A stretch of DNA of 64,000 bases, from contig OZ251997.1 in the NCBI GenBank assembly GCA_965247095.1, positions 736,001-800,000 of the forward strand, given 5' to 3'. A model generated the notes under the pieces. The model worked only from the letters and a program-made list of their open reading frames with translations. It was not told the origin of the DNA and made no database searches. Each line of letters opens with the position of its first letter. Position 1 is the stretch's first letter. Below, in pieces: positions 50,983-64,000 of this stretch. The position numbers were made by a program, and so were the translations under genes. This DNA is from Candidatus Multivorans sp. Its GTDB lineage: Bacteria; Acidobacteriota; Thermoanaerobaculia; Multivoradales; Multivoraceae.

Positions 50983-51663
50983 CTAGCCGCTGACGCGGAA
51001 CGAGCGGGCGACGCGGAAGCCGGTGTCGTCGGCCGCGAAGCCGGTGTCGTCGGCCGCGAAGTCGGCGGATTCGCGCTTCCGGAGGCGGTAGTGGAGTTCG
51101 CACGCCTCGGTACGGAACGAGCCGCCGCAGAGCGTTCGGCGGCGTTCGTCGCCGTCCGCGCCGGAGGCGACCCATTCCCACACGCTGCCCAACATGCCGT
51201 GGAGACCGAAGCCGTTCGCGCCCCTGCGTTCGGGCGGTTGGACAACCCCGTCCGAGTTGCCGGCGTGCCAGCAACGTCGGTCGATCGATTCCGGCGTGGC
51301 GTTCCATGGGGGAACCTCGTCGGCCGCGGAACCGCCGCGGCAGGCATAGCGCCACTCGACTTCGGTCGGCAGCCGCATGGGTTTGCGCGAGACCTCCGCG
51401 TACCACAGGCAGTAGGCGTCGGCCTGCCGCCAGCTCACTCCCGCGGCGAGGTCGCGATCGCCCGCTGACAGCGGTGATCGCTGGTAGCCGGGATCGAAGG
51501 CCTCGAACTGCTCGTTCGTCACCGGCCACTTGCTGAGGTAGAAGGGGTCGACCGCAACCACCCGGCCGCCCACCCGGATCTCGCCACCCGGGATCAACCA
51601 CAGGATGGTGCGCGGAACGTGGGCGTAGGAGCGGGGCAGCGGTCGGCGCGCGGTGCTGGCCAC
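50983..51663 (-). CDS. Formylglycine-generating enzyme-like (SUMF1/NirV) domain protein
   Basis: PVTNEQF, VSW..A..YC.W, RLPTE.EW.YA, N.FGL..M.G.VWEW, GGSF, GFRVA. Confidence 0.88.
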   Translation of the reverse strand: MASTARRPLPRSYAHVPRTILWLIPGGEIRVGGRVVAVDPFYLSKWPVTNEQFEAFDPGYQRSPLSAGDRDLAAGVSWRQADAYCLWYAEVSRKPMRLPTEVEWRYACRGGSAADEVPPWNATPESIDRRCWHAGNSDGVVQPPERRGANGFGLHGMLGSVWEWVASGADGDERRRTLCGGSFRTEACELHYRLRKRESADFAADDTGFAADDTGFRVARSFRVSG

Positions 51664-51783: not shown

Positions 51784-53151
51784 TCAGGAGGGTCGGCCGA
51801 ACACCTTGGGCGTCGGCATCCGGGCGCGGATTGCGTCGAGTTCCTCGACCGTCACGGTCGAAATGCCGCTCTTCAGGCAGTGGGATTCCACCGAGCGGAC
51901 GACCATGCCGCGAACGAAGGCCGGCACCCGCTTCATCCGCGCTTCCGCCTCGGGCGCCCAGGCGATGCTGGTGGAGGTGTTCTCGCCGTAGCGGGAAAGG
52001 GACGCGAGCCCGGTTCGGTCCCCGAACGCCGCGAGTTGTTCTGGCGAGAAGGAACCGGGGTCGTGGGTGCACAGCGGATCTTCCGCCATCAGGTCGCCGG
52101 TCATGCCGTAGGCGCGGGCGCGGCAGCCACCGCAGACCGACTGCAGCTCGCAGGAACCGCAGCGTCCGCCGAGGTCCTTGCGGCGCCGGATGTCCTGGAA
52201 CAGGTCGGAGTCGTTCCAGACCGCGGACAGCGTCGAGCGCTTCAGGTTGCCGCCGAAGACGGGCAGGTAGGGGCACGGCGTGACATCGCCGTTCGGGCGG
52301 ATCCCCATGTAGTGGGTGCCGGCCGGGCAGCCGCCGGCGCCGCCGTCGAAGGCCTTGAGGAAGGGCGAGTCGGGATCGCCGGACAGCAGTTGACGAACGT
52401 AGTGCGGCGCGCACTTCGCGTTGACCACCATGCGGCCGCGGTAGTTGCGCTGAATCTGTTCCAGGGAGGCGAGGACCTCGTCGTAGTCGGACGGCGAGAG
52501 ATCGGACACGAACTGGCCGCGACCCGTGGGCACCAGGAAGTAGAGGTTCCAGACCCGGGCCTGGAGTTCGGTATAGGCGAACTCGGCGATCTCCTCCAGT
52601 TCCCCGAGGTTGTGTGCCCCGGCGGTGGTCTGGATGATGAAGGGAAGACCGGCTGCGGCCAGGTGCCGGGCGCCGTCGACCGTGTTCTGCCAGGCGCCGC
52701 GGACGCGGCGGAAGCCGTCGTGGACCGCCGGGTCCAGCGCGTCCAGCGACAGGGCGAGACCGCGGACTCCTTCGCCGGCCAGGATGCGGGCCAGGTTCTC
52801 GGTGATCCGGACGCCGTTGCTGCCGACCACGACCCACAGATCGCGCTCGGCGGCGTAGCGGACGATGTCGAGGATGTCGCGCCGCAGCAGCGGCTCGCCG
52901 CCTGTGAGGATGACCAGGGCCTCGGGCGCGAACTCGCAGATGTCGTCGATCACCTTCCGGCACTGGTCGGTGGAGAGTTCCGAGCGGTCGGCGAAGTTGG
53001 CGGTCTCGACCAGCGGCTTGCCGCCGGCGTCGAGGTAGCAGTGCTCGCAGGCCAGGTTGCAGCGGTAGGTCAGATTCCAGGAGATCACGTAGGGGCGGGC
53101 GAACGCCGTCGGCGTGGCGCTGGTCGGCCGTTCGAGGGGTGACAGGGTCAT
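51784..53151 (-). CDS. Radical SAM/SPASM enzyme (NirJ/AhbD-like) with C-terminal PCP_red-like domain
   Basis: WNLT..CNLACEHC, TGGEPLLR.D, LVPTGRG, CPAG...G.V.PC...C..C...CGGCRARA...EDPLC; tail W.PEAE.R..RVP.FVR. Confidence 0.88.
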   Translation of the reverse strand: MTLSPLERPTSATPTAFARPYVISWNLTYRCNLACEHCYLDAGGKPLVETANFADRSELSTDQCRKVIDDICEFAPEALVILTGGEPLLRRDILDIVRYAAERDLWVVVGSNGVRITENLARILAGEGVRGLALSLDALDPAVHDGFRRVRGAWQNTVDGARHLAAAGLPFIIQTTAGAHNLGELEEIAEFAYTELQARVWNLYFLVPTGRGQFVSDLSPSDYDEVLASLEQIQRNYRGRMVVNAKCAPHYVRQLLSGDPDSPFLKAFDGGAGGCPAGTHYMGIRPNGDVTPCPYLPVFGGNLKRSTLSAVWNDSDLFQDIRRRKDLGGRCGSCELQSVCGGCRARAYGMTGDLMAEDPLCTHDPGSFSPEQLAAFGDRTGLASLSRYGENTSTSIAWAPEAEARMKRVPAFVRGMVVRSVESHCLKSGISTVTVEELDAIRARMPTPKVFGRPS

Positions 53152-53175
53152 GGCGAGAGCCTGGTGCGAACCCGA

Positions 53176-53652
53176 TCAGGCGATGCCGAAGAAGGAGCGG
53201 GCGCGCTCCAGCACGCCCGCGTCGACCTCGTCGTAGCCATGGTCGAGAGCGAACTTCTCGATTCCGGCGACCGCCGAAGTGCGCACGATGTCGGGGATGT
53301 TCGCCAGCCGTTCGCGGGCCTCGGCGGTCCAGGGGATGCCTCCCGATTCACCGTTGCCGGTAACGCTTGGGCTGCCAACTTCGTCTTCGGACTGGGTAGT
53401 CGGCATGCCCATCTCGGCCAGCATGCCGGTAAAGGGACACTTCGAGGATGTCGCCCCGGCCTCCGTGCCGGTCTCGGGGCCGATCCGCACGCCGAGGGCG
53501 CCGACCACCTGGGTCTCGTGGGGATTGGTCATCATCGCCATCTCGGCAGAGCAGGTGGGACAGGCATAGACCAGGGCGACGGAACCGCCATCGGGGCCCA
53601 GGGCGTGCTTCAGCTTCATCTGCTCGTCGCAGGGTACGCAGAGGAATTTCAT
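53176..53652 (-). CDS. Small Cys-rich protein (CxxC/CxxC, CPF) with PCP_red-like domain
   Basis: MKFLCVPCD...CPTC...NP.ETQ.V, KCPF, WT.EA..RL..IP..VR......IE..A...G; AAGGA RBS. Confidence 0.8.
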   Translation of the reverse strand: MKFLCVPCDEQMKLKHALGPDGGSVALVYACPTCSAEMAMMTNPHETQVVGALGVRIGPETGTEAGATSSKCPFTGMLAEMGMPTTQSEDEVGSPSVTGNGESGGIPWTAEARERLANIPDIVRTSAVAGIEKFALDHGYDEVDAGVLERARSFFGIA

Positions 53653-53674
53653 CCTTGGTCTCAGTCGGCGGAAA

Positions 53675-54547
53675 TCAGGTCGTCTTGGCGAGGCAGTTCA
53701 GGATCGAAGCCGCGGCCTCGTCGATCGCGCGGAGGACCGGTCCTGGGGCCAAGTCCGCTTCACCGGCATCGGAGGCCGCAGCCAGTCGCGGGTCGAACGG
53801 TACCTTAGCCAGGCAGGGGAGTCCAAGCGCGGGCGCTTCGCCGGCCGCGCCATCGAACAGGGGGCGGACCCCGTCGCAGGTTCCGCAGTAGTAGCCGCTC
53901 ATGTTTTCGATGTACCCGAGCACCTCGTTCGGCGTCGTGCCGAGCGCCGCCGCCGAGCGCGCAACGACCCCGCGTGCCAGCGCGGCAGGAATCGTGACGA
54001 GCACGAAGCGCGCGGCCGGTCCAAGGACCTCGGCGTACTGCAGGGTACGCTCGGCGCCGGGCGGCAGGTCGACCAGGAGAAAATCGAGACGACCCCAGTC
54101 CACCAGGCCGAGCAACTGCTGGAACAGGTTGAACTCGCGGGTTGCGCGCCAGACGTGGGAGTCGCCCTTCGCGACGCTCTCGAACTCGAGGTGCTCCGAT
54201 TCGGGCACCATGGAGCCCACCGACACCACTCCGAGGCCATGAGGCGTGCGGGGCAGGGCCATGCCCCGATCGCCAGGCAGCAGCGGAACGTGTTCCAGTC
54301 CGGCCAGCCGGGCCTGGCAGGGTCCGTTCAGGTCGGCATCGAGGATCGCGCATTGGAGTCCCGCGCGCCCGAGCGCCAGAGCGAGCTGCATGGTCAGGGT
54401 GCTCTTGCCGACGCCTCCCTTGCCCGAACCGATGGCGACCACATGGTCGATGCCGGCCGTGGCCTCGGCGATGCGCTCCCGCTGCTGGAGAACCTGCCCG
54501 AGAACGTCGGAACCGCCGTCTCCGGCGACGTCGAAGTAGGTCCTCAT
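53675..54547 (-). CDS. Mrp/NBP35 (ApbC) P-loop ATPase, Fe-S carrier
   Basis: SGKGGVGKST, LDADLNGP, W..LD.L.VDLPPG, ENMS.Y.C..C, PFDP. Confidence 0.88.
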   Translation of the reverse strand: MRTYFDVAGDGGSDVLGQVLQQRERIAEATAGIDHVVAIGSGKGGVGKSTLTMQLALALGRAGLQCAILDADLNGPCQARLAGLEHVPLLPGDRGMALPRTPHGLGVVSVGSMVPESEHLEFESVAKGDSHVWRATREFNLFQQLLGLVDWGRLDFLLVDLPPGAERTLQYAEVLGPAARFVLVTIPAALARGVVARSAAALGTTPNEVLGYIENMSGYYCGTCDGVRPLFDGAAGEAPALGLPCLAKVPFDPRLAAASDAGEADLAPGPVLRAIDEAAASILNCLAKTT

Positions 54548-55392
54548 GGCCGGCGGACGCGGTCGAGAAGGCCGGTTCGTCTCGCCAAAGAGCTTGCCTC
54601 GGCGCGCAGCCGCCCACGGAGGTCGAGTTCCGGAAAGGCGGCGCGCTGAAAGATGAGCCCATCGTTCACGATCCAGGGGCGGCTGCGACCGAAGGCGTGA
54701 CGATGTCTCTTCATGTAGACGAGTTCGAAACCGTTCTTCGCAAGCAGGCCGACCAGCTCCAGAGGACGGATACCAAACTGCCAGTACCAATGGTTGTCCC
54801 GCTCCAGCCGTCCGTCCTCGTCGCGGTGGTCATGCTTGTCAAACCACGCCTCCAGCCTGGCGCGCGTGTTCCAATGGTCTTCCCAAACGTAGACATTCTT
54901 GTAGTACCAGTCCAGGCCGCGATCGACAAACCGTATGGTCCGTGCAGTCTTCAACCAGTTCTGATTGAAGACAATCAGAACGTCGGTATGCGGCAGCCAG
55001 TTCAGCAGGAACCTGTCCCAGTCCGGCTTGACCTGATGCAGCAGGATGTCGTACATGATGAGGGCATCGACCTCACCTACCGCGTCGAGCGCCTGCTGTG
55101 AGCCGAGCATCGCCTCGACGAGCTCCACTCTGGGATGTTCCTTCGCGCGCTCCTGGGTCAGAGGAGTCAGGTTGCCGTCGACGATCACCGCTCTCCCGAG
55201 CTCGTTTCCGCAGAGTTCGGCGGCGTGGAACGTGTAGGCGCCGTCGACGCCCCAGCAGGCGCCAAGGTCGGCGAAGGACCGGAAGTCGGTGAGCTCGTAG
55301 GCCGTCTCGAGCAGCTCGAGTTTCTCCGGTTTTGGCTGAACCTCGGACTGCGCTCCGACTGGCATTTCTTCGGAGCTGAGGCGGGCGAACAT
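54544..55392 (-). CDS. Hypothetical protein, possible class I SAM methyltransferase fold
   Basis: ADLGACWG motif I-like, D...YD.LLH; stop overlaps the mrp start; more AT-rich than neighbours. Confidence 0.55.
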   Translation of the reverse strand: MFARLSSEEMPVGAQSEVQPKPEKLELLETAYELTDFRSFADLGACWGVDGAYTFHAAELCGNELGRAVIVDGNLTPLTQERAKEHPRVELVEAMLGSQQALDAVGEVDALIMYDILLHQVKPDWDRFLLNWLPHTDVLIVFNQNWLKTARTIRFVDRGLDWYYKNVYVWEDHWNTRARLEAWFDKHDHRDEDGRLERDNHWYWQFGIRPLELVGLLAKNGFELVYMKRHRHAFGRSRPWIVNDGLIFQRAAFPELDLRGRLRAEASSLARRTGLLDRVRRP

Positions 55393-55428
55393 GGGGGCAG
55401 CCTAACAGGGGGAGGCGACGCTAGCTGG

Positions 55429-56358
55429 TCACGACCGAGCGGCGTCACTTTCGTATCGAAGGGTCTTCCGCGCCGCCTGGAAGCCGCAGTCTTCGAGCCG
55501 ATCCGCCAGTGGTTCGCGGCGGTGCACCCGCGGCAGGTAGAGCGGTCGTTTGCAATCGTTGGCGGCGAAGGCGAGGAGCGGCCCAAGAAGAGCCGGCACC
55601 GGCCGCTTGCCGCCGATCGCGAGGATCTCGCAGGGTGTGGAGCCGGCGGGCAGGCCGGCGGCCGATCTGGAAACCGGCGGCCGGGCGATGAACGGCAGGG
55701 GGTCGTCGGCGTCCTGGGCGCTTCGATAGAGGAGATAGGCCTCGAAGCCGCGGTCGGTGGCGATGCCGACGCCCAGTGCTCGCTCGCGCAGGTTGCGGAT
55801 CGTCTGGGCGGAGCGCTGCCAGCAACGATTCAGTTCCGAGGCATCGGCGAACTCGGCACTGGCTGTGATCTCCGACGGGGCAACAGTCCCGACCAGGTCG
55901 AGGAAGGGGCCGGCCGCGGGCCTCGCGGACTGCTGGATGTAGTCGATGAGGGTTTCTGCTTCGGCGAAACCGCAGGCCCTGAGGAAACGGTGGGCGGCAA
56001 CGGCCTCCGCCGGGACTTCGACGAGCATGCGGGTCGGCTCGAGGATCGCCATCTTCTGGCTGAGCGAAGTCATCATGTGGCGGGCATGGCCCTGCCGGCG
56101 GTGGTCCGGGTGGACCGCAACGTGGAGCACGAGGCTGGCCGTGGGCTCTCGCTTCGCCGCGATCAGCACGCCGATCGGGTCGCTGCCCGCGAACGCGACC
56201 ATGCAACTGCTGGTCCAGAGGTTGATCTCCCTGGAGAGCCGCTTCATGTGGTCGACTGTGAGCCGCCACGGGACGGCGCCGGGTCCCACGTTGCAGCGGT
56301 GGAACGCCTCGACGATCAGGGGCACGTCGTCAGAGCGGCAGAAGCGGTACGCAGGCAC
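55429..56358 (-). CDS. GNAT family N-acetyltransferase
   Basis: VAVHPDHRRQGHA acetyl-CoA binding motif, LEV...A..F...CGF-like segment; start uncertain. Confidence 0.75.
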   Translation of the reverse strand: MPAYRFCRSDDVPLIVEAFHRCNVGPGAVPWRLTVDHMKRLSREINLWTSSCMVAFAGSDPIGVLIAAKREPTASLVLHVAVHPDHRRQGHARHMMTSLSQKMAILEPTRMLVEVPAEAVAAHRFLRACGFAEAETLIDYIQQSARPAAGPFLDLVGTVAPSEITASAEFADASELNRCWQRSAQTIRNLRERALGVGIATDRGFEAYLLYRSAQDADDPLPFIARPPVSRSAAGLPAGSTPCEILAIGGKRPVPALLGPLLAFAANDCKRPLYLPRVHRREPLADRLEDCGFQAARKTLRYESDAARS

Positions 56359-56362
56359 CGGC

Positions 56363-57733
56363 CTACTCGGTCCGCGGGCCGGCAGGCGCCCCAAGCGCGG
56401 CCGGAGCGGGGGGCGCGCCGGTCGGCGCCTGCTCCGGCAGGCGCAGCAGCGCGAGGATCAGCATGGCGGAAACGTACATGGAGATGAAGACGGTGAAGGC
56501 GAGGTCGTAGCTCCCGAAGCGGTCGAAGACGTACCCCGCGAAGGGTACGCCGAGGATCTGGATCGGCAGAAGCATCGGGCTCATCAGACCCATGACCCGG
56601 CCGAACGATCGCCGTCCGAAGCAGGCGCCGATCAGCGTCCCCCAGAGGGGCATCATCCCGCCCATGCCGAGTCCGAAAACCGCCGCGGCGCCGATCAAGG
56701 CCGGGTAACTCTCGGCCCGGAGCAGGGCCGTTGTGCCGGTGGTCTGCAGACCGATCGCCAGCCACAACGCGCCGCGGCTGCTCAAACGATCGCCGATCCA
56801 ACCGAACACGACCTTGCCCAGCACGCCCATCGCGGCGATGGCGGAGAGGCTGAAAGCGGCCCGGATCGGTGCGAAACCCAGGTCCGTGGCGTGGGCGATG
56901 ATGTGGGTGAGAATCGCCGAGTTGGAGCAGAAGTTCATCGACACCACCAGGGCGATGACCCAGAAGTTGCGGTTGGCGAGGGGCTCGACCCAGTCGAGGC
57001 GCCGGCGCCTCGGCGGCGCGCCGGCGAACGTCGGGGCCGGCGCGACCGGTTCGACTCCGGCCGGGCCTTCACCCGGGGCAGGGGTCGGGGTCCATTCCGG
57101 CGCCATGGAGGTCGCGTCTCCGTCGGGGTGCAGGCCGATGTCCTCCGGCCGGTCGACGACCCAGCGGCGCACCGCCGGCAGCACGAACAGCAGGGTCAGC
57201 GCGCCGTAGAGCACGAACGTGCCACGCCAGCCGATCAGCCCGATCAGCCGGGTGGCGACGGGCGCCATGACGACGCCGGACAGGGAGATGCCCATCGTGG
57301 CTATGCCCAGAGCCATGGAGCGCCGGCGAACGAACCAATTGGCGACCAGGGTCGACGCGGTCACGCCTCCGACCAGGGCGGCCCCCAGGGCCAGGAAGGT
57401 GCCGAGGACGAGGTAGAACTGGACCAGGTTCTGGACCGTGGCGGTCAGCAGGAGTCCGGTCGCCAGCAGCCAGACGCCGGCCGTCATCGTCCGCTTGGCG
57501 TGGCCGTGGTCCAGGGCGTGCCCCAGGAAGGGCGCGACCAGGCCGTTGGTGATGCCGAAGACGGCGAGGCCGATGCCGACGCCCGTTCGCCCGCCGCCGA
57601 ACTCGGCTGTCAGGGCGACGAAGAAGACGCCGAAGGAGTAGAAGCCGAAGCCGACCGAGACGAAGAGCGACAGGAAGCAGACGCCGATGATCTTCCAGCC
57701 GTGGAAGACCGCGCTGGCGGGAGGGGGCCGCAA
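56363..57733 (-). CDS. MFS transporter (OFA/monocarboxylate-like)
   Basis: FHGW.I, NWF.RRR..ALGI, P...GL.PDG, GWIGDR, FG...FG...G, 12 TM pattern. Confidence 0.88.
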   Translation of the reverse strand: MRPPPASAVFHGWKIIGVCFLSLFVSVGFGFYSFGVFFVALTAEFGGGRTGVGIGLAVFGITNGLVAPFLGHALDHGHAKRTMTAGVWLLATGLLLTATVQNLVQFYLVLGTFLALGAALVGGVTASTLVANWFVRRRSMALGIATMGISLSGVVMAPVATRLIGLIGWRGTFVLYGALTLLFVLPAVRRWVVDRPEDIGLHPDGDATSMAPEWTPTPAPGEGPAGVEPVAPAPTFAGAPPRRRRLDWVEPLANRNFWVIALVVSMNFCSNSAILTHIIAHATDLGFAPIRAAFSLSAIAAMGVLGKVVFGWIGDRLSSRGALWLAIGLQTTGTTALLRAESYPALIGAAAVFGLGMGGMMPLWGTLIGACFGRRSFGRVMGLMSPMLLPIQILGVPFAGYVFDRFGSYDLAFTVFISMYVSAMLILALLRLPEQAPTGAPPAPAALGAPAGPRTE

Positions 57734-57767
57734 GCTGCTAAGCCAGCAGGTCGTCCAGCCTGAGAAC

Positions 57768-59933
57768 TCAGGCTTCCGGTTCGCCGGCCTTGCGCTTCTC
57801 GTCGAGTGCCGACATCAGGCCGACCTCGTTCAGGTACGTGCCGGCCTTCGCGTCCTTGGCCGCCTCGACCTGTGCCTTGCTCGCGCCGGCTTCGGCGAGA
57901 GCGGAGAAGGGACACCGTCCGGCGGCTGTCGCGGCCTTCGTCTCGGCATCGGCGACCTCGGTCGCCTGGGTCCCTTCGCCCTTGCCGATCTCGTAGGCCG
58001 CGATCATCTGCTCCATCAGTTCGTGGCCCAGTTCGATGCCCTCTTCGACGGTCTTGATCCCGATCCGCGAGATGTGCTTCTCGCGGGCCACCAGCTCGAC
58101 GCGCTCCTGGGTCCGGTCCCGCATGAAGCCGGCGGGCACCCGGAGAATGCGGGAGGTGGCGTCGGCCGTCCACTCGTAGCTCGAGAGCAGCGGCACCCGA
58201 TCGCCGTCGCGGGCGATCAGCTTCCGCTCGTCGGATGCCGCTTCGGTGGCGCCGTTGTCGTTCGTTGCGGCCGCCTGCTCACGGGCCTCGATCGTCACCG
58301 GCTCGCCGGTCTCGTCCTCGATCTGCGCGCGGGCGAACTCGAAGGTGACGGTCGGCAGCTTGCTCATCCGCGCCTTCTTCTCGATCCGGGCCTTGGCGCG
58401 ACGGCGCCGGTACAGGTCCTCGATCGTCTTGAGGGCCAGACGGGCGTCCGCGGTCCACTTCAGCTTGCGGCCGTCGTAGGTCATCTCGACTTCCAGACCG
58501 CCTTCCATCTCGGCGATCCGTTCGAGCATCTCCTCGGTGATCTGCTCGAAGGACTTAGCTCCGCAGACGCCGCAGCGGACCGGATCCGGCTCGGCCGAGG
58601 TCACGCCGCACTTGCGGCAGATGAAGGTGGGCCGGCTGCGCGCGAGCTGCAGGCCGACCTGCTCGGCCAGCGCCTCCGTCTCGCGAGCGGTGTACTTGGG
58701 CATGTAGCGGTCCATCGCCTCGTCCAGCACGTCGCTCGAGATCACGCTGTGGCCCTGCTCGACCGCCAGCCGGTAGAGCGCGGTGCGGGCGATGCCGCGC
58801 ACCTGCTCGGGGACGCGCTTGAAACGCTCCTCGGCCTCGGGCGTCCAGCGGATGCTCTCCTCGGCCTTCACGTCGAGTTCCGGGTACTCGAGACGCGTGG
58901 TCAGCAGGAGGTCGCAGGGGCAGGAGCGGAGAAGGTTCTCGGCGTTGCTGCCGAGGCCGGTCTCGTTCTCGTCGCTGTGGACGCCGATGCGGCCGATGAC
59001 CAACATCCAGGGATCGATCTTGCGGGCGTGGTCGAGGACCTTCTGGAACGCTTTGCCGTCGAGCAGGGTCTTCGTCAACTCGACCCCGACCTCGGTCGCC
59101 ATCGTCTCGGCGACGTCCAGGTGGGACTGGTAGATCTGCGCCAGGCCGGTATCGATGATCTCTTCGTGGAGCTGGTTCTGCTCCTCGAAGCGGAAGACCT
59201 TCGCGGCCCGCTCGGTCAGCACGTTGACCACGCCCTTGAACACCGAGTAGTGCAGGTACGGGTCGTAGACCGAGATCGCCTCGACCTTCTTGCCGAACCG
59301 CTCGGCCAGGTCGATGGCGGTCATCAGAGCGCCGAAGGACTGGGGCGAGCCGTCGACGCCGACCAGGATCGTGTCGCGGCCGTCGGCCTCGGCTTCTGCG
59401 TGGTTGCCGTTGCCGTTGCCGTTGCTCCCCGAAACTCGGGCCGGCAGGCGCTTGATCACCAGCACGTCCTTGTCGGCGCTGCGGGCCACCCGCTCGCAGA
59501 CCGAGCCGATCTGCGTGTCGCGGACGCGGCCGATGCCCATCACGCCGAGCACCGTCAGGTCGTAGCCGGACTCGCGGATGTCGCGCACGATCTCGACGTG
59601 GTGCTTGCCGTCCATCATCTTCGGCTCGAACTCGAGGTCGGCTTCGTCGCAGACGGCCTTCATCGGCTCGAGGTAGCTCTCCGAGATGAGCTCCAGCCCC
59701 ATCGTGATCAGGGAGTCGTGGATCTTCCGCTGGCGGTCGAGTTCCGTCTCCTCGAGGTACTCCTCGGGCAGCGTGTACTCCATCTGCTTGAAGCGGTAGT
59801 CGTGCATGCTCGCCGCGTAGACGTGGCAGCCGACCATCCTGGAGTCGAACTTCCGGCCCAGTTCGACCGCGGAGGCGATTGCCTGGTTGGAGTAGTCCGA
59901 GTTGTCGAGCGGGACGTAGATCGTCTTGTACAT
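57768..59933 (-). CDS. Multidomain universal stress protein: 2x USP + 3x PCP_red-like + rubredoxin-like CxxC/CxxC + CPF
   Basis: MYKTIYVPLDNS and ILVGVDGS USP starts, IGSVCERV / LGSNAENL; three WT.(E/D)A repeats; CRKCG...CGVCG; RCPF. Confidence 0.85.
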   Translation of the reverse strand: MYKTIYVPLDNSDYSNQAIASAVELGRKFDSRMVGCHVYAASMHDYRFKQMEYTLPEEYLEETELDRQRKIHDSLITMGLELISESYLEPMKAVCDEADLEFEPKMMDGKHHVEIVRDIRESGYDLTVLGVMGIGRVRDTQIGSVCERVARSADKDVLVIKRLPARVSGSNGNGNGNHAEAEADGRDTILVGVDGSPQSFGALMTAIDLAERFGKKVEAISVYDPYLHYSVFKGVVNVLTERAAKVFRFEEQNQLHEEIIDTGLAQIYQSHLDVAETMATEVGVELTKTLLDGKAFQKVLDHARKIDPWMLVIGRIGVHSDENETGLGSNAENLLRSCPCDLLLTTRLEYPELDVKAEESIRWTPEAEERFKRVPEQVRGIARTALYRLAVEQGHSVISSDVLDEAMDRYMPKYTARETEALAEQVGLQLARSRPTFICRKCGVTSAEPDPVRCGVCGAKSFEQITEEMLERIAEMEGGLEVEMTYDGRKLKWTADARLALKTIEDLYRRRRAKARIEKKARMSKLPTVTFEFARAQIEDETGEPVTIEAREQAAATNDNGATEAASDERKLIARDGDRVPLLSSYEWTADATSRILRVPAGFMRDRTQERVELVAREKHISRIGIKTVEEGIELGHELMEQMIAAYEIGKGEGTQATEVADAETKAATAAGRCPFSALAEAGASKAQVEAAKDAKAGTYLNEVGLMSALDEKRKAGEPEA

Positions 59934-60004: not shown

Positions 60005-61816
60005 TCAGACGGCGGGGGCCTCGGTACCCGCGAGGGCGGTCTCCTCGCCGGCCGATGCCTGGTTCGCGCGGCGGCGGACCAGGAACACGACGAGCAATTC
60101 GATCACGAGCACGATGAAGGCGGCGCGCAGCACCGGGATGGTCGCTGCCTGCTTCACGGTGGGTTCGGTGTAGACGTAGAACCAGGACGACACGGCGCGC
60201 TTGTTGCCGCGTTCCCGGTTGAAACCGTCCCAGACGCTGAAGGCGATCGGCGTGTACTGCTGCTCGGCGAAGCTGACGCCGGCGCGTGACGCGCGGCGGC
60301 GCCTATAAGTCACGGTCCACTCGCCCTGGTCGTAGGAGGTCACGGCCTCGACGATATCCGCCTCGGTCGGCTCGACCGCGTCGCTGCCGCGGCCCCGGAA
60401 GGTGTCCGCAACGCCATAGGTCAGGTTGACGAACCAGAGGTCGACCGGGTTCGAGCTGTCGCCGAACAGGAAGTACGGCTTGAGCTGGGGCGTCTTCTCG
60501 GGCGCGAGCGAGGCCGGGAACTGGAGCGCCACCGCATCCGAGAACTCGGCGCCGTCGCCGCCGGTATCGCCGCCACCGCCGAAGAAGTCGTCGTCCGTGC
60601 CGAAGAAGTCGTCGGCGCTGTCGTCGACGGTCTCGACGCCGAAGAACCCGGCATCGTCCTCGGGCGCCACCTCTTCGATGCCGAAGAAGCCTGCGTCGTC
60701 CTCGGGCTCCTCCTCGACGCCGAAGAAGCCGCCGTCTTCGCCTCCGTCACTGTCTCCCGAGTCGATGTCGTTGTCCTCGTCCCACATCGGTACGTCCAGC
60801 GAGGGGTTGTTCCTGCCGGTGTTGTCGGCGCGCAGGTCGTTCCAGCGCACCCGGAAGGCGATCTCGCCGCGGTTGTAGACGGCCTGAGCCTCGATCGAGG
60901 TCACGGACGGATAGAAGTTGCGACCCGGTTCGGTGATCTGGCCGACCAGGGGGAAGCGGGTCATCGGCGCGGTCTCGAACAGGGCGTCGAGCGCTTCCGC
61001 GTCCTGCAGGTCGATCGCCTCCTCGGTCCATGCGGCGGTGATCAGGGTGCCGTAGCCGGGGTCGTCGCCGTCGCCCAGGGAGTACACGTAGTTCACCAGG
61101 TGCTGCCGGTCCTCTTCTTCCAGCGAGTCGGCGTACGACGGCATCGGGGTGCCGTTCAGCCCGGTGGAGAAGGTGCGGTAGATGTCCTCCTTGGTCGCGC
61201 CGCCGCGGAAGGTCCAGCGCTGGGTCAGATCGGCGGCCTTGATCAGGTCGTTCTTGTCGTTGACCAGGGTCGGCGCCGAGTTTCCGTCGCCGCGGCCGAC
61301 CTCGCCGTGACAGGCGGCGCAGCCCTGCTCCTCGTACAGCAGCCGGCCGCGGGCGATGGACTCCTCGGTCGACTCGAGCGGCCGGGGGATGTCGATGGGC
61401 TCGCCGTAGCGGTCGGGATTCTCGAAGTCGGGCGAGAAGGACTTGATGTAGTAGATGACGTTCTGGACCTCCGCGTTCGTCAGGTCCGGCCAGCCCGGCA
61501 TCGACGTGTAGGGGAGGCCGGTCTCGATCACGCGGCGCAGGTCGTCGTCCGTGGGAAGCATCCCGTTCGGCGTGGCGCGGAACTTGTACTTGCCGGACGT
61601 GAAGTCGCGCGGCTTGGGCTTGACGCGCAGGGTGGCGTAACCGTTGCCGTCGCCGGCATCGCCGTGGCACTGGCCGCAGTACGTGTCGTAGACCACCTTG
61701 CCGGCCGCCCGCTGTTCCTCGGCGCCGAGGTCGACCTGGGCGGCCAGGGGCGCGACCAGCAGGACGGCGCCGACCCCTACGGCCGGTACGGACGCGAGAA
61801 TGTGACGCACGGACAT
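60005..61816 (-). CDS. Diheme cytochrome c fused to a DOMON-like (ethylbenzene dehydrogenase gamma-type) heme domain, C-terminal TM anchor
   Basis: Signal peptide, CGQCH..G.G.G..PRDFT.G.YKFR, CAACH, GT.MP, F...W.D, SDAVA.QFP, G.W.V...R, AF.VWDG...ERG.K. Confidence 0.85.
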   Translation of the reverse strand: MSVRHILASVPAVGVGAVLLVAPLAAQVDLGAEEQRAAGKVVYDTYCGQCHGDAGDGNGYATLRVKPKPRDFTSGKYKFRATPNGMLPTDDDLRRVIETGLPYTSMPGWPDLTNAEVQNVIYYIKSFSPDFENPDRYGEPIDIPRPLESTEESIARGRLLYEEQGCAACHGEVGRGDGNSAPTLVNDKNDLIKAADLTQRWTFRGGATKEDIYRTFSTGLNGTPMPSYADSLEEEDRQHLVNYVYSLGDGDDPGYGTLITAAWTEEAIDLQDAEALDALFETAPMTRFPLVGQITEPGRNFYPSVTSIEAQAVYNRGEIAFRVRWNDLRADNTGRNNPSLDVPMWDEDNDIDSGDSDGGEDGGFFGVEEEPEDDAGFFGIEEVAPEDDAGFFGVETVDDSADDFFGTDDDFFGGGGDTGGDGAEFSDAVALQFPASLAPEKTPQLKPYFLFGDSSNPVDLWFVNLTYGVADTFRGRGSDAVEPTEADIVEAVTSYDQGEWTVTYRRRRASRAGVSFAEQQYTPIAFSVWDGFNRERGNKRAVSSWFYVYTEPTVKQAATIPVLRAAFIVLVIELLVVFLVRRRANQASAGEETALAGTEAPAV

Positions 61817-62634
61817 CAGTGCTGCCCCAGAGCGCGCGGCTCGTAGCCGTTGAAGTCGTAGATGAACAGGTTGACGTCCCACATCTCCTCGGTGGTGAGA
61901 AACTTCTCCCACGCCGGCATGGCGCTGTCCCAGGGGGTGCCCGCCGCAGGCAGACCGGGTCCGCCCATGGCGATCCGCCAGTGGACGAAGGAGGACTGCA
62001 GGATCGGCAGCGTGCCGACATCGTTGAAGTTGCTGGGCGCCGGGTTCAGGCCGTGGGCGAACATGCCGTCGCCGCCCATGCCGTCGCCGTGGCACCAGAA
62101 GCAGTTCTCGTAGTAGACGCGACGGCCGTTCTCCAGGTGCTCCTCGTACGCCTCCGGGTCGTCTTCGTGAAGGTGGGTGTACGGGTTGTCGGCGGTCGCC
62201 ATGTCGATCGTCTCGTCGTGGACCGTGATCTCCGTTGGCGGCGCCGGATGCACCTCGCGCCCGAATCCGGGCGCCTCGAGCGGTACGTTCATGTCCGCGT
62301 AGACGTTGTAGGCGGCCAGGGCGGGCAGCGCCACGAGTACCGCGGCCAGAAGCGGCCGGCGCCGTGGTTCAAGGATGAGCCGCTTGATCGGTACTGTGGT
62401 CTCGGACAGGCGCTCGCGGCTCGACGAGGCGTAGCAGACCAGAGCGAGCGTCGCGATCCCCAGGTAGATCGTCGCCACCGACTGCGGGATCGGTACGGCG
62501 AAGCCGAACTTGAAGAAGGCCCAGAGCGCGATCCAACTGAAGAGCAGCCAGGCGAGTGTGTTGGCCCGGCGCCAGGCCAGCACGCCGGCGACCGCGGCCA
62601 GGGCAAGAAGAACCGGTAGGTTGAGTCCCATCAT
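61816..62634 (-). CDS. Membrane-anchored monoheme cytochrome c
   Basis: N-terminal TM helices, R..HPAPP, ENCFWCHGD..G.G, WRI..GGPGLP...PW.SAMPAWE. Confidence 0.88.
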   Translation of the reverse strand: MMGLNLPVLLALAAVAGVLAWRRANTLAWLLFSWIALWAFFKFGFAVPIPQSVATIYLGIATLALVCYASSSRERLSETTVPIKRLILEPRRRPLLAAVLVALPALAAYNVYADMNVPLEAPGFGREVHPAPPTEITVHDETIDMATADNPYTHLHEDDPEAYEEHLENGRRVYYENCFWCHGDGMGGDGMFAHGLNPAPSNFNDVGTLPILQSSFVHWRIAMGGPGLPAAGTPWDSAMPAWEKFLTTEEMWDVNLFIYDFNGYEPRALGQH

Positions 62635-62665: not shown

Positions 62666-63151
62666 TCAGTAGCCGAGTTCGGCGTCCAGGGTCACGGACG
62701 GCGTTCCGCCCAGGCTCTGCAGCCAAGCGATCACGGCCTTGATTTCGTCATCGGAGAGATTGATCGGCGGCTCATTCATCGGCTGCATCCCGTCCTCGTA
62801 TCCGGGAACGACGAACTTCCCCGGTTCGTAGAGAGACTGCGCCAGATACTCGACATCGGACAGCCCCTCGATTCGCGTCGCCGCGCGCTGTCCGATACCA
62901 CCCAGATCCGGATAGCGGCTTGGTCCGCTGGAACCGATCTGGTGGCAGGCGGCGAGGCATTGACCCTTGCCGTTGGCCAGCTCGTTGCCGACCTCGATGA
63001 GATCCTCGGTCGTCATGTCGGCGTCGATCAGCACCGGCGGCGGAGGGTGTACTTCCTTCTGGGGCACGATCTGGCCCAGGTACATGTAGAAGGCCGTGGT
63101 GCCCAACACCAGGAGGACCATCTTGAGCGGCATCGGGACGTTCAGCTTCAT
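62666..63151 (-). CDS. Membrane-anchored cytochrome c with CxxxCH motif
   Basis: TM, VPQ....PP, GKGQCLAACH, R.PDL, EYL..SL..P..FVV.GY...M, EI.AVIA.LQS.GG. Confidence 0.85.
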   Translation of the reverse strand: MKLNVPMPLKMVLLVLGTTAFYMYLGQIVPQKEVHPPPPVLIDADMTTEDLIEVGNELANGKGQCLAACHQIGSSGPSRYPDLGGIGQRAATRIEGLSDVEYLAQSLYEPGKFVVPGYEDGMQPMNEPPINLSDDEIKAVIAWLQSLGGTPSVTLDAELGY

Positions 63152-64000
63152 GCCGTCCGCCCCTCCTTGAGCCGGCCGTCGGCTTCAGTGGCGGTCTTCG
63201 GCTGCCAGGGCTTCTTGCCGGCGAGGCTGCTGAGCCAGAAGACGACGCCGAGCAGGCCGAAGAAGATGAGAACGGTGACGGAGACAACCCGGGTGGCGAA
63301 GCCCAGGCTCGGAGTGTATGCCTCCGGAGAGGTGTCGAGGACCACGCCGTACACGTGCCACTCCTGTCGCAGGCCGGAGCGGACGTAGCCCATCAGGCCC
63401 ATCAGCCAGGTGAAGCTCAGCGCGATGAAGATCAGCGCGTACTGCGAGATCGCGGGCATCTTGCCCCATTGCGTCTCGCCGGGCCGCCTGGCGTTCCGGT
63501 ACAGAGGCAGGTCGATGATGGTGATCACGGCCATCGCCGCGAGCACCGAGTAGACCTGGGGTATTGCGAATCGGACTCGCATCGCGGCGTCGACGGTCTG
63601 GTGGTAGCCGTAGACGCCGAAGAAGATGACCAGCGCGGCGGTAGCGGCGAAGACCACCACCTGGGCGCGGCTCAGGAGCTGCCTCCGCGGGTGAATCGAC
63701 TGCTTGCCGGTTCGCCGGTAGAGCAGGAAGCTCATGTAGGTCGACAGGATGAGGATGTTGACCGCCGTGTTCTTGGCCGACATCTGACCCAGATAGGAGA
63801 GCTGCGGGTGGCTGCTGCCGCCCATCGCGGCGATCTCGGAAACGGACGAGATCGCATAGCGAGGCGTTGCCCAGACGGCGAAACAGAGGGCGATCGCGAT
63901 CAGCAGCCACTTGATGAACTTCTGAAAGTGGGCTGTGCCCTCGATCCGACCCATCCCCAGCCACAGGTAGTAGTTCGCGCCCAGGAACAGGTTGCCGATC
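63148..64000 (-). CDS. Cytochrome bd-like oxidase subunit I-related membrane protein (3' part; runs off the window end)
   Basis: Frame stays open to 64000 (IGNLFLGANYYLWLGM...), G.MSAKNTAVN, WLMGLMGYVRSGLRQEWHVYG resembling the CydA C-terminal GRQPW region. Confidence 0.7.
   Translation of the reverse strand, partial: IGNLFLGANYYLWLGMGRIEGTAHFQKFIKWLLIAIALCFAVWATPRYAISSVSEIAAMGGSSHPQLSYLGQMSAKNTAVNILILSTYMSFLLYRRTGKQSIHPRRQLLSRAQVVVFAATAALVIFFGVYGYHQTVDAAMRVRFAIPQVYSVLAAMAVITIIDLPLYRNARRPGETQWGKMPAISQYALIFIALSFTWLMGLMGYVRSGLRQEWHVYGVVLDTSPEAYTPSLGFATRVVSVTVLIFFGLLGVVFWLSSLAGKKPWQPKTATEADGRLKEGRTA

Follow-up and report, generated by a model that had tools for sequence, protein, structure and literature searches.

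Introduction

The BchB (ChlB) subunit of dark-operative protochlorophyllide oxidoreductase (DPOR) ends in a small domain of the Pfam family PCP_red (PF08369). In BchB, contact with the substrate in trans is made by helix 398-420, which lies upstream of this domain (PMC12022308) and is the "C-terminal helix" described as covering the cavity (PMC4071322). Coprohaem is decarboxylated by AhbD, a SPASM enzyme that contains several [4Fe-4S] clusters (PMC13564367). The bd-like oxidases of the OR-N family are uncharacterised but widespread putative terminal oxidases, found for example in nitrite oxidisers, and their subunits, cofactors and function are without experimental tests (PMC10839748; PMC12342949). 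They have no quinol site, and their operons carry alternative electron donors (10.1101/2021.01.16.426971). Here we describe a locus in a window of 64,000 nucleotides from Candidatus Multivorans sp. (assembly GCA_965247095.1, contig OZ251997.1, positions 736,001 to 800,000 of the forward strand), in which five PCP_red domains are shared by three proteins: a universal stress protein (USP), a small zinc-ribbon protein and a radical S-adenosylmethionine (SAM) enzyme. The unit formed by these PCP_red proteins and a divergent Mrp-type ATPase is a conserved accessory module of a bd-like oxidase.

The available parts of the DPOR literature do not state a contact between PCP_red and the ATPase BchL, and those of PMC13474568, 10.1101/2025.02.17.634645, PMC12022308, PMC4071322 and PMC7317204 do not state a role for PCP_red. 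Judged from listings, the literature on PCP_red (PF08369) gives no account of the domain's function. We found no description of the module itself; for the OR-N papers this refers to the main texts, supplements aside, and the terms "radical SAM" and "universal stress" are absent from those of 10.1101/2021.01.16.426971, PMC12342949 and PMC10839748. No paper on Candidatus Multivorans was found.

Identity and fold of the five domains

An earlier reading of the window, made from the sequence alone, had noticed a motif recurring five times in the three proteins and likened it to the C-terminal domain of BchB/ChlB. All five motif strings are present in the translations where it had placed them, and the domains are true members of PCP_red. 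PF08369, with a gathering cut-off of 32.5 bits, matches the USP protein at 75.4 bits in three stretches, the small protein at 45.4 bits (residues 108-152) and the radical SAM enzyme at 44.5 bits (residues 398-441). Scanned in six frames, the genome (4,617,209 bases, 98.96% complete) returned exactly five matches, all at this locus. They lie at 51829-51960 in the radical SAM gene (48.5 bits), at 53197-53331 in the small gene (47.8 bits) and at three places in the USP gene, here called U1 (58716..58847, residues ~363-406, 46.0 bits), U2 (58335..58457, residues ~493-533, 23.7 bits) and U3 (58041..58172, residues ~588-631, 31.8 bits). Taken singly, U3 and U2 fall under the cut-off. The middle copy, U2, had been called degenerate, and it is the weakest of the five; it lacks the V/I-P motif and is basic, being rich in Arg and Lys.

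The fold agrees with the family assignment. When the modelled PCP_red domain of the small protein was superposed with Foldseek, it matched the BchB domain 2KRU (rmsd 0.7 over 51 columns), Asr4154 (2L09; rmsd 2.0 over 51 columns) and ChlB in 2YNM chain D (rmsd 1.1 over 49 columns), each with probability 1.00. A profile built from 14 homologues of the small protein matches residues 457-529 of ChlB in 2YNM (E 7.4e-9), and also Asr4154 (2L09), the BchB domain (2KRU) and residues 465-523 of Rhodobacter capsulatus BchB. The AlphaFold (AF2) model of the USP protein (mean predicted local distance difference test score, pLDDT, 69.6) shows a strand-helix-helix-strand-helix pattern three times, at residues 362-410, 492-542 and 587-649, and U2 has the same secondary-structure pattern as U1 and U3, with pLDDT 77-86.

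A chance motif is ruled out by the Pfam scores, by the five-match genome scan and by the conservation of the domains across all 24 sampled genomes of the same genus, 22 of which have five matches and two of which have three. Phototrophy, or a hidden DPOR, was also considered and rejected. The NCBIfam model DPOR_BchB scores 47.3 bits against a cut-off of 490 and aligns with the C-terminal 50 residues only, which places the protein outside BchB, and the whole genome has no PCP_red locus beyond the five. With no BchB in the genome, PCP_red is not a photosynthesis gene here.

Co-occurrence with a bd-like oxidase

The CydA-like (cytochrome bd subunit I-like) membrane protein of this genome is encoded at the edge of the window, on the minus strand like the whole gene set under study. 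Its C-terminal part lies at 63148..64000, as an open reading frame of 268 aa inside the window; the full protein has 645 aa and continues past the window end (L096 148-2085). It matches Cyt_bd_oxida_I at 91.2 bits over profile positions 2-240 of 418 only, which is the N-terminal core, and its gene is the only one of its kind in the genome. Within the window the cluster goes on with a cytochrome c of 161 aa (62666..63151) and a membrane-anchored cytochrome c of 272 aa (61816..62634), both assigned by Pfam and synteny, and with a dihaem cytochrome c-EB_dh (haem b) fusion that matches Cytochrom_C, Cytochrome_CBB3 and EB_dh. The maximal reading frame of the fusion gene is 60005..62095, and its true start is probably near 61.8 kb. 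Upstream of the CydA-like gene, beyond the window, lie a cytochrome c gene and a gene for a 1135-aa molybdopterin-like/4Fe-4S protein (L096 2721-6128, same strand), a fused QrcB plus QrcC-like (ActB-like) protein with a variant of the twin-arginine signal. This content fits an OR-N-type bd-like oxidase, the assignment being made by operon content and published description and not by phylogeny. Further upstream, a NosD-like beta-helix protein is encoded on the same strand (L096 8628-10043).

Among 301 genomes of Acidobacteriota with completeness of at least 90%, PCP_red was found in 28 and a CydA-like protein (E <= 1e-20) in 22. The 22 carriers coincide exactly with the 21 genomes that show at least three PCP_red matches and one more genome, G141, that shows two; none of the remaining 279 has a CydA-like protein. 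G182 and G087, both among the 22, are unpublished, and the count without them is 20/299. The six other PCP_red-positive Acidobacteriota have other architectures. G189 (L097, L098) has true BchN/BchB and BchZ, with BchB and BchZ scoring 548 and 509 bits, and its BchZ ends in a PCP_red domain (35.7 bits). G294 has BchB and BchZ by the pattern of matches, G156 a 91-aa stand-alone protein and G292 one weak match, and G219 and G311 are described below. A second sample, 201 genomes of the phylum of locus L046 (Myxococcota), gave a CydA-like protein in nine, all nine with 2-9 PCP_red matches, and in none of the 180 PCP_red-negative genomes. When the two phyla are pooled, all 31 CydA-like carriers have PCP_red, and a CydA-like protein occurs in 0/453 PCP_red-negative genomes; the sampled genomes are related and not independent, hence these counts are given without statistics, but both phyla show the pattern. 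The PCP_red set always travels with the oxidase and is therefore probably its assembly or cofactor-making kit. The module is a conserved accessory unit of an uncharacterised bd-like oxidase cluster that runs past the end of the window, a link that the sequence-only reading had not noticed.

Gene order

Synteny was compared in 80 loci from several phyla, kept out of at least 562 confirmed loci. In 78 of the 79 loci with enough sequence, the gene immediately upstream of the small gene is Mrp, and the Mrp stop codon overlaps the start of the small gene by 4 nt in 36/72. The radical SAM gene lies downstream, no more than 1.5 kb away, in at least 73 of 78 loci, 67 times on the same strand and six times on the opposite one. 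Where at least 9.5 kb of upstream sequence was available (58 loci), the USP gene was found in 43, a gene for a GCN5-related N-acetyltransferase (GNAT) in 44 and the cytochrome c-EB_dh gene in 39; in most loci the GNAT gene is placed between those for USP and Mrp. The earlier suggestion that the three PCP_red proteins and Mrp are linked is borne out by this gene order and, as described above, by their strong co-occurrence. The bearers and Mrp form one functional unit.

A haem-copper oxidase operon comprising COX1, COX2, COX3 and COX4_pro was seen in three loci (L055, L087, L049), 2-6 kb downstream of the trio of Mrp, small and radical SAM genes and on the opposite strand. It is a second link of the trio to terminal oxidases.

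USP-PCP_red genes also occur in another setting. Both G219 and G311 encode a USP-USP-PCP_red protein of 336-340 aa beside a radical SAM-type gene and an ABC transporter (L100 6017-8655, L101 6027-9315). The radical SAM-type neighbour matches B12-binding, Radical_SAM and DUF4070 in L100 and DUF4070 only in L101, and Mrp was not seen beside USP-PCP_red at these two loci. An assignment of the B12-type enzyme as BchE is unsupported, the BchE model scoring 81.6 bits against a cut-off of 481. The pairing of a USP-PCP_red protein with a neighbouring radical SAM enzyme may be more widespread.

Position-specific classes of PCP_red

PCP_red was found in 9 of the 16 genera sampled in the order. To the sequence-only reading, the repeated domain had suggested a docking code, and the part of that idea that concerns co-occurrence and position-specific classes has held up. 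From 20-31 orthologues for each of the five positions, 118 domains in total, it can be seen that every position has a consensus of its own, conserved between Acidobacteriota and Myxococcota; that of the U3 class is "RilRVPAGFMR.rTQeRiE". A quick maximum-likelihood tree of the 118 domains recovered U1 (20 domains), U2, U3 and the class of the small protein (S) each as one clade, with supports of 92, 94, 50 and 86. Because they have separate consensus sequences and clades, the copies are old paralogues under separate constraint. Such constraint is compatible with distinct partners and is no proof of them.

Fusions show where else the domain is used. A search with residues 100-158 of the small protein, limited to longer proteins, found no fused forms at E <= 0.001 among 212 candidates; this was weak evidence, and such forms were later found by profile search. 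The domain profile matched 2138 protein clusters at E <= 0.001, the best ones with 2-6 copies. The architectures of the first 80 of the 150 clusters listed were scanned: PCP_red is present in all 80 and stands alone in 40, and it is joined to USP in 34, to radical SAM and/or SPASM in three, to a rubredoxin-like domain in seven and to a haem-oxygenase-like domain in one. The last of these is P0150, in which three PCP_red copies are joined to Haem_oxygenas_2. Clusters with USP and PCP_red are known from Acidobacteriota, Pseudomonadota and Nitrospinota. Fusion of several PCP_red copies to USP, radical SAM/SPASM and rubredoxin-like domains is an arrangement that would be expected of an adaptor module.

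The module proteins

The USP protein (57768..59933, 721 aa) contains, in order, two USP domains, U1, a Cys4 zinc-ribbon/rubredoxin-like knuckle, U2, U3 and a disordered tail. The USP family (PF00582) matches at 131.2 bits over the two domains. G130, G133 and G143 never vary and S144 hardly does; these residues would be the ATP motif G-2x-G-9x-G(S/T). The protein is unusually conserved, with about 60% identity between phyla and a mean column identity of 64% in the alignment of 20 orthologues (A4). Its tail, a stretch otherwise disordered and variable, carries an invariant LNEV motif (residues ~701-704, window 57810-57830) that looks like a short linear binding motif.

The small protein (53176..53652, 158 aa) joins an N-terminal Cys4 zinc ribbon to a C-terminal PCP_red domain. 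It has 3484 homologues of near length at E <= 0.001, its homologues measuring 134-190 aa, and C5, C8, C31, C34, C72 and P73 are invariant in 31 sequences. Its AF2 model (mean pLDDT 71.7) shows a three-stranded zinc ribbon (pLDDT 82-88) and the three helices of PCP_red (pLDDT >90), with linkers 57-72 and 82-103 disordered (pLDDT <50) and a short helix at the Cys-Pro-Phe motif. This Cys-Pro(-Phe) motif (residues 72-74, window 53420-53440) is invariant in the small protein and presumably resembles haem regulatory motifs. A similar GRCPF in the USP tail (window 57870-57890) is not conserved among USP orthologues, so the idea of a haem regulatory motif is a lead for the small protein only.

The Mrp protein (53675..54547, 290 aa) is a divergent Mrp/NBP35-type P-loop ATPase. 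It matches the NUBPL-type ParA family (PF10609) at 170.7 bits against a cut-off of 27.1 and falls under the equivalog cut-offs of ApbC (99.9 against 348 bits) and MrpORP (165.6 against 450 bits). The deviant Walker A motif SGKGGVGKST and the cysteines C218 and C221 are invariant in 31 sequences, and an N-terminal GDGGS is conserved. It is the second paralogue in the genome, at about 170 bits against 335.5 for the canonical copy.

The radical SAM/SPASM enzyme (51784..53151) carries its PCP_red domain at the C-terminus. It belongs to the radical SAM/SPASM superfamily (Radical_SAM 82.9 bits, SPASM 40.7 bits), and 27 sequences all keep the CX3CX2C motif (C31, C35, C38) and eight further Cys. Among NCBIfam models, AhbD (TIGR04545, 290.9 bits), NirJ2 (280.4 bits) and TIGR04053 (266.1 bits) score highest, all under their cut-offs; at 290.9 and 291.8 bits in two scans against a cut-off of 500, it is not an AhbD equivalog. 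The peptide-maturase models MftC, PqqE and GeoRSP reach 121-146 bits, about half the tetrapyrrole-type scores. Both clades of the enzyme (~65% and ~40% identity) have the C-terminal PCP_red. After this domain (window 51784-51830) the tail IRARMPTPKxFG is strongly conserved in the main clade, and a related FGK...P tail is seen in the Myxococcota clade.

The last member of the module is a GNAT acetyltransferase-like protein of about 309 aa (55429..56358; Pfam Acetyltransf_7/1). Its start is probably a GTG, to judge from orthologues that begin M(S/T/P)AYRFCR.

Proposed docking and the place of Mrp

The binding that the docking proposal supposes was put to one complex prediction. The Mrp dimer was predicted together with the small protein, both with alignments, and against three controls. 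The score was 0.41 (runs 0.40, 0.41 and 0.44) against 0.05 for the best control; in the calibration, 116 of 157 solved complexes and 2 of 215 mismatched pairs attained the mark, and at 0.60 or below lay only 18 of the 157 solved complexes and both of the passing mismatches. Contacts are shared between runs to at least 31%, and the partner has a pLDDT of at least 56. The prediction lends weak support to a complex between the Mrp dimer and the small protein. Mrp as a partner, which the sequence-only reading had considered plausible, would fit the tight gene linkage; the loci without an adjacent Mrp that are given below speak against it as a universal hub. PCP_red may be a tethered docking unit, for Mrp or for another partner.

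Proposed role and alternatives

Our preferred explanation, to which we give about an even chance, is that the locus encodes a cytoplasmic maturation or regulation module of the bd-like oxidase, with the PCP_red units as tethered docking modules. The five PCP_red domains are old, position-specific paralogues of the three-helix domain of about 45 residues that ends BchB and BchZ. They hang by flexible linkers from three cytoplasmic proteins, the double-USP protein, the zinc-ribbon protein and the AhbD/NirJ-like radical SAM enzyme. Together with the GNAT protein and the divergent Mrp, these three bearers make up the conserved accessory module of an OR-N-type oxidase cluster whose other products are the QrcBC/ActB-like subunit, the c-type cytochromes, the CydA-like protein and the cytochrome c-EB_dh fusion. 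The radical SAM enzyme may make or modify a tetrapyrrole (haem) cofactor, or may mature the oxidase in some other way. The Mrp paralogue and the translationally coupled zinc-ribbon protein may supply it with Fe-S clusters or electrons, the PCP_red units would gather the proteins of the module, and the USP protein would act as a nucleotide-sensing scaffold. One could go further and suppose that the OR-N oxidase needs a haem derivative or another matured cofactor, which a dedicated NirJ/AhbD-like radical SAM enzyme with a PCP_red tag produces independently of oxygen, that PCP_red is a general recruitment tag which brings tetrapyrrole Fe-S enzymes (DPOR, chlorophyllide oxidoreductase (COR), radical SAM) to ATPase or electron partners, and that the multi-copy USP protein senses the nucleotide state of the cell and gates assembly. 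We regard this extended version as unlikely.

Several observations weigh against the maturation module. In 15 of the 58 loci with at least 9.5 kb of upstream sequence, the USP gene is not with the trio of Mrp, small and radical SAM genes, and three of the five annotated loci of this kind (those named above) have the haem-copper oxidase operon near the trio instead. G141 has a minimal cluster in which genes for a CydA-like protein, cytochromes c, a USP-USP-PCP_red protein (411 aa) and a radical SAM-PCP_red protein (420 aa, NirJ2 326 bits) stand in a row; Mrp, the small protein and GNAT are not found between them and could lie elsewhere in this assembly of 620 contigs. A second pair of small and radical SAM genes in G163 has no adjacent Mrp. 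G219 and G311 each hold a single PCP_red, so there can be no pairing of one PCP_red with another there. The class of the radical SAM domain (R, 27 domains) is not one clade in the quick tree. The complex prediction is a single one and gives no interface, so the contact could be made by the zinc ribbon rather than by PCP_red. The radical SAM enzyme falls under every curated cut-off, and its substrate is therefore a guess. The haem genes of the genome point the same way. HemF, a HemY-type oxidase and the ferrochelatase HemH are encoded together at about 4.18 Mb, so haem b can be made aerobically without the radical SAM enzyme. ChdC was not found in the genome, the best match to HemN stays at 139.1 bits against a cut-off of 324.95 and is no true HemN, and the oxygen-dependent HemF is the only coproporphyrinogen oxidase. 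A coproporphyrin-dependent (CPD) haem pathway with AhbD replacing ChdC was also considered; ChdC was not found, yet HemF is present, and the idea was not made our main explanation.

The alternatives differ in what they take PCP_red or the radical SAM enzyme to do. PCP_red could be a docking tag for SIMIBI-class Fe-S ATPases such as BchL and BchX, in which case the Mrp dimer would be the hub for all three bearers here. This is possible and, on balance, doubtful. It is favoured by the adjacency of the small gene and Mrp (78/79 loci) with their start/stop overlap (36/72), by the predicted complex (0.41 against 0.05, with the calibration caveats above) and by the presence of PCP_red in BchB and BchZ, both of which work with a NifH-like ATPase; that the L-protein-bound 2YNM chain D is the only DPOR chain among the fold matches, which fits ordering of the domain in the complex, is only a hint. 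It is harder to reconcile with the G141 minimal cluster and the second G163 locus, which have no adjacent Mrp, and with G219 and G311, where USP-PCP_red stands beside a B12-type radical SAM enzyme and an ABC transporter and no Mrp was seen. The prediction is moreover silent on which part of the small protein touches Mrp, and the available DPOR literature does not place PCP_red at the interface with the L-protein. PCP_red could instead bind or hand off tetrapyrroles for DPOR, COR and AhbD/NirJ-like radical SAM enzymes, with the USP and small proteins as haem or porphyrin carriers for the oxidase. All enzymatic hosts at family level are indeed tetrapyrrole enzymes or their nearest relative (BchB, BchZ, the AhbD/NirJ2-like radical SAM enzyme), P0150 joins three PCP_red copies to Haem_oxygenas_2, the module accompanies haem-rich oxidases, and the invariant Cys-Pro(-Phe) of the small protein has the likeness to haem regulatory motifs that we assume. 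We nevertheless consider a carrier role improbable. With 45 residues and three helices, the unit offers little room for a porphyrin pocket, the Cys-Pro motif of the USP tail is not conserved, and up to six copies per protein suit a scaffold better than a carrier. The idea is weakened further by DPOR itself, where helix 398-420 and not the PCP_red region 465-523 covers protochlorophyllide in trans (PMC12022308; PMC4071322).

The two remaining explanations concern the radical SAM enzyme, and we hold both to be very unlikely. One makes it an oxygen-independent enzyme of haem b synthesis, a coprohaem or coproporphyrinogen decarboxylase for general supply at low oxygen, with the USP protein as a hypoxia switch and the link to the oxidase as co-regulation only. 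AhbD is the best model (290.9 bits), neither ChdC nor a true HemN backs up the sole HemF, AhbD homologues exist outside the alternative haem biosynthesis (AHB) pathway (PMC13564367), and USP proteins encoded beside electron-transport operons of Nitrospira marina rise at low oxygen (PMC8115632). A general enzyme should not, however, track one oxidase so exactly (31/31 against 0/453). Its score is also far under the AhbD cut-off of 500, and the HemY-type oxidase, being of the common oxygen-dependent kind, would leave the pathway in need of oxygen. The other explanation starts from the fact that other SPASM enzymes modify proteins or peptides, and it takes this one for a maturase that makes a cross-link or other modification in an oxidase subunit or in the small protein. 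The SPASM domain with its eight further invariant Cys, the sizeable MftC, PqqE and GeoRSP matches (121-146 bits) and the small conserved protein encoded directly upstream, as in many systems resembling those of ribosomally synthesised and post-translationally modified peptides, speak for it. Tetrapyrrole-type models score about twice as high, however, and the small protein, a folded two-domain protein of 134-190 aa, is no leader-core peptide.

Neighbouring genes and expression

Two genes within the locus are lineage-specific inserts and lie outside the conserved core. The 282-aa protein (54544..55392, minus strand), whose stop overlaps the Mrp start, has no Pfam or NCBIfam match and is seen in close relatives only. 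The major facilitator superfamily (MFS) transporter (56363..57733, minus strand; MFS_1 150 bits) is confined to loci with an identity of about 75% or higher. After the radical SAM gene comes a gene for a protein resembling the formylglycine-generating enzyme (FGE)-sulfatase family (50983..51663, minus strand), found downstream of radical SAM in Multivorans-type loci only, with a sulfatase near in L042; it is probably unrelated to the module.

Parts of the radical SAM, small, Mrp, 282-aa, USP and cytochrome genes are matched, with 90-99% identity, by contigs of three metatranscriptome libraries (studies P7 and P8); some stretches are uncovered, for example 56144-57017. One contig crosses the junction of the small and Mrp genes (53471-53809). 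At most this hints at expression of the genes by relatives in nature, as DNA carry-over in the libraries is possible.

Comparison with known systems

The PCP_red domains described here share Pfam family and three-helix fold with those of BchB/ChlB (DPOR), BchZ (COR) and Asr4154. As in the BchB-type domain, a small domain ends a long flexible linker, and the conserved core W..A..R...(V/I)P..VR is common to both. Unlike DPOR and COR, the hosts here are not nitrogenase-like, and five copies fall in three proteins with position-specific classes. PCP_red, an orphan of structural genomics, gains by this a second, non-photosynthetic setting that is open to genetic and biochemical dissection.

The radical SAM enzyme resembles AhbD and NirJ/NirJ2 in its CX3CX2C core and SPASM domain, and it has Cys enough for two auxiliary clusters. 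It differs from AhbD and NirJ2 in its scores (281-291 bits against cut-offs of 500) and in its extra C-terminal PCP_red and MPTPKxFG tail, and it differs from AhbD and NirJ in being tied genomically to an oxidase cluster and not to ahb or nir genes. The Mrp protein shares the NUBPL/ParA domain, the Walker A motif GKGGVGKST and the CxxC with Mrp/NBP35/ApbC carriers, including MrpORP. Unlike them, it is a divergent second paralogue with its own GDGGS motif and is translationally coupled to a PCP_red protein.

The oxidase cluster is like those of the OR-N oxidases (10.1101/2021.01.16.426971; PMC12342949; PMC10839748) in having c-type cytochromes and an ActB/QrcBC-like subunit by the CydA-like gene. 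The main texts of these papers, supplements aside, mention no radical SAM or universal stress partners. A five-gene cytoplasmic module that is present with the oxidase in every genome examined provides concrete candidates for oxidase maturation, and it raises the testable idea that this oxidase requires a tetrapyrrole made by a radical SAM enzyme.

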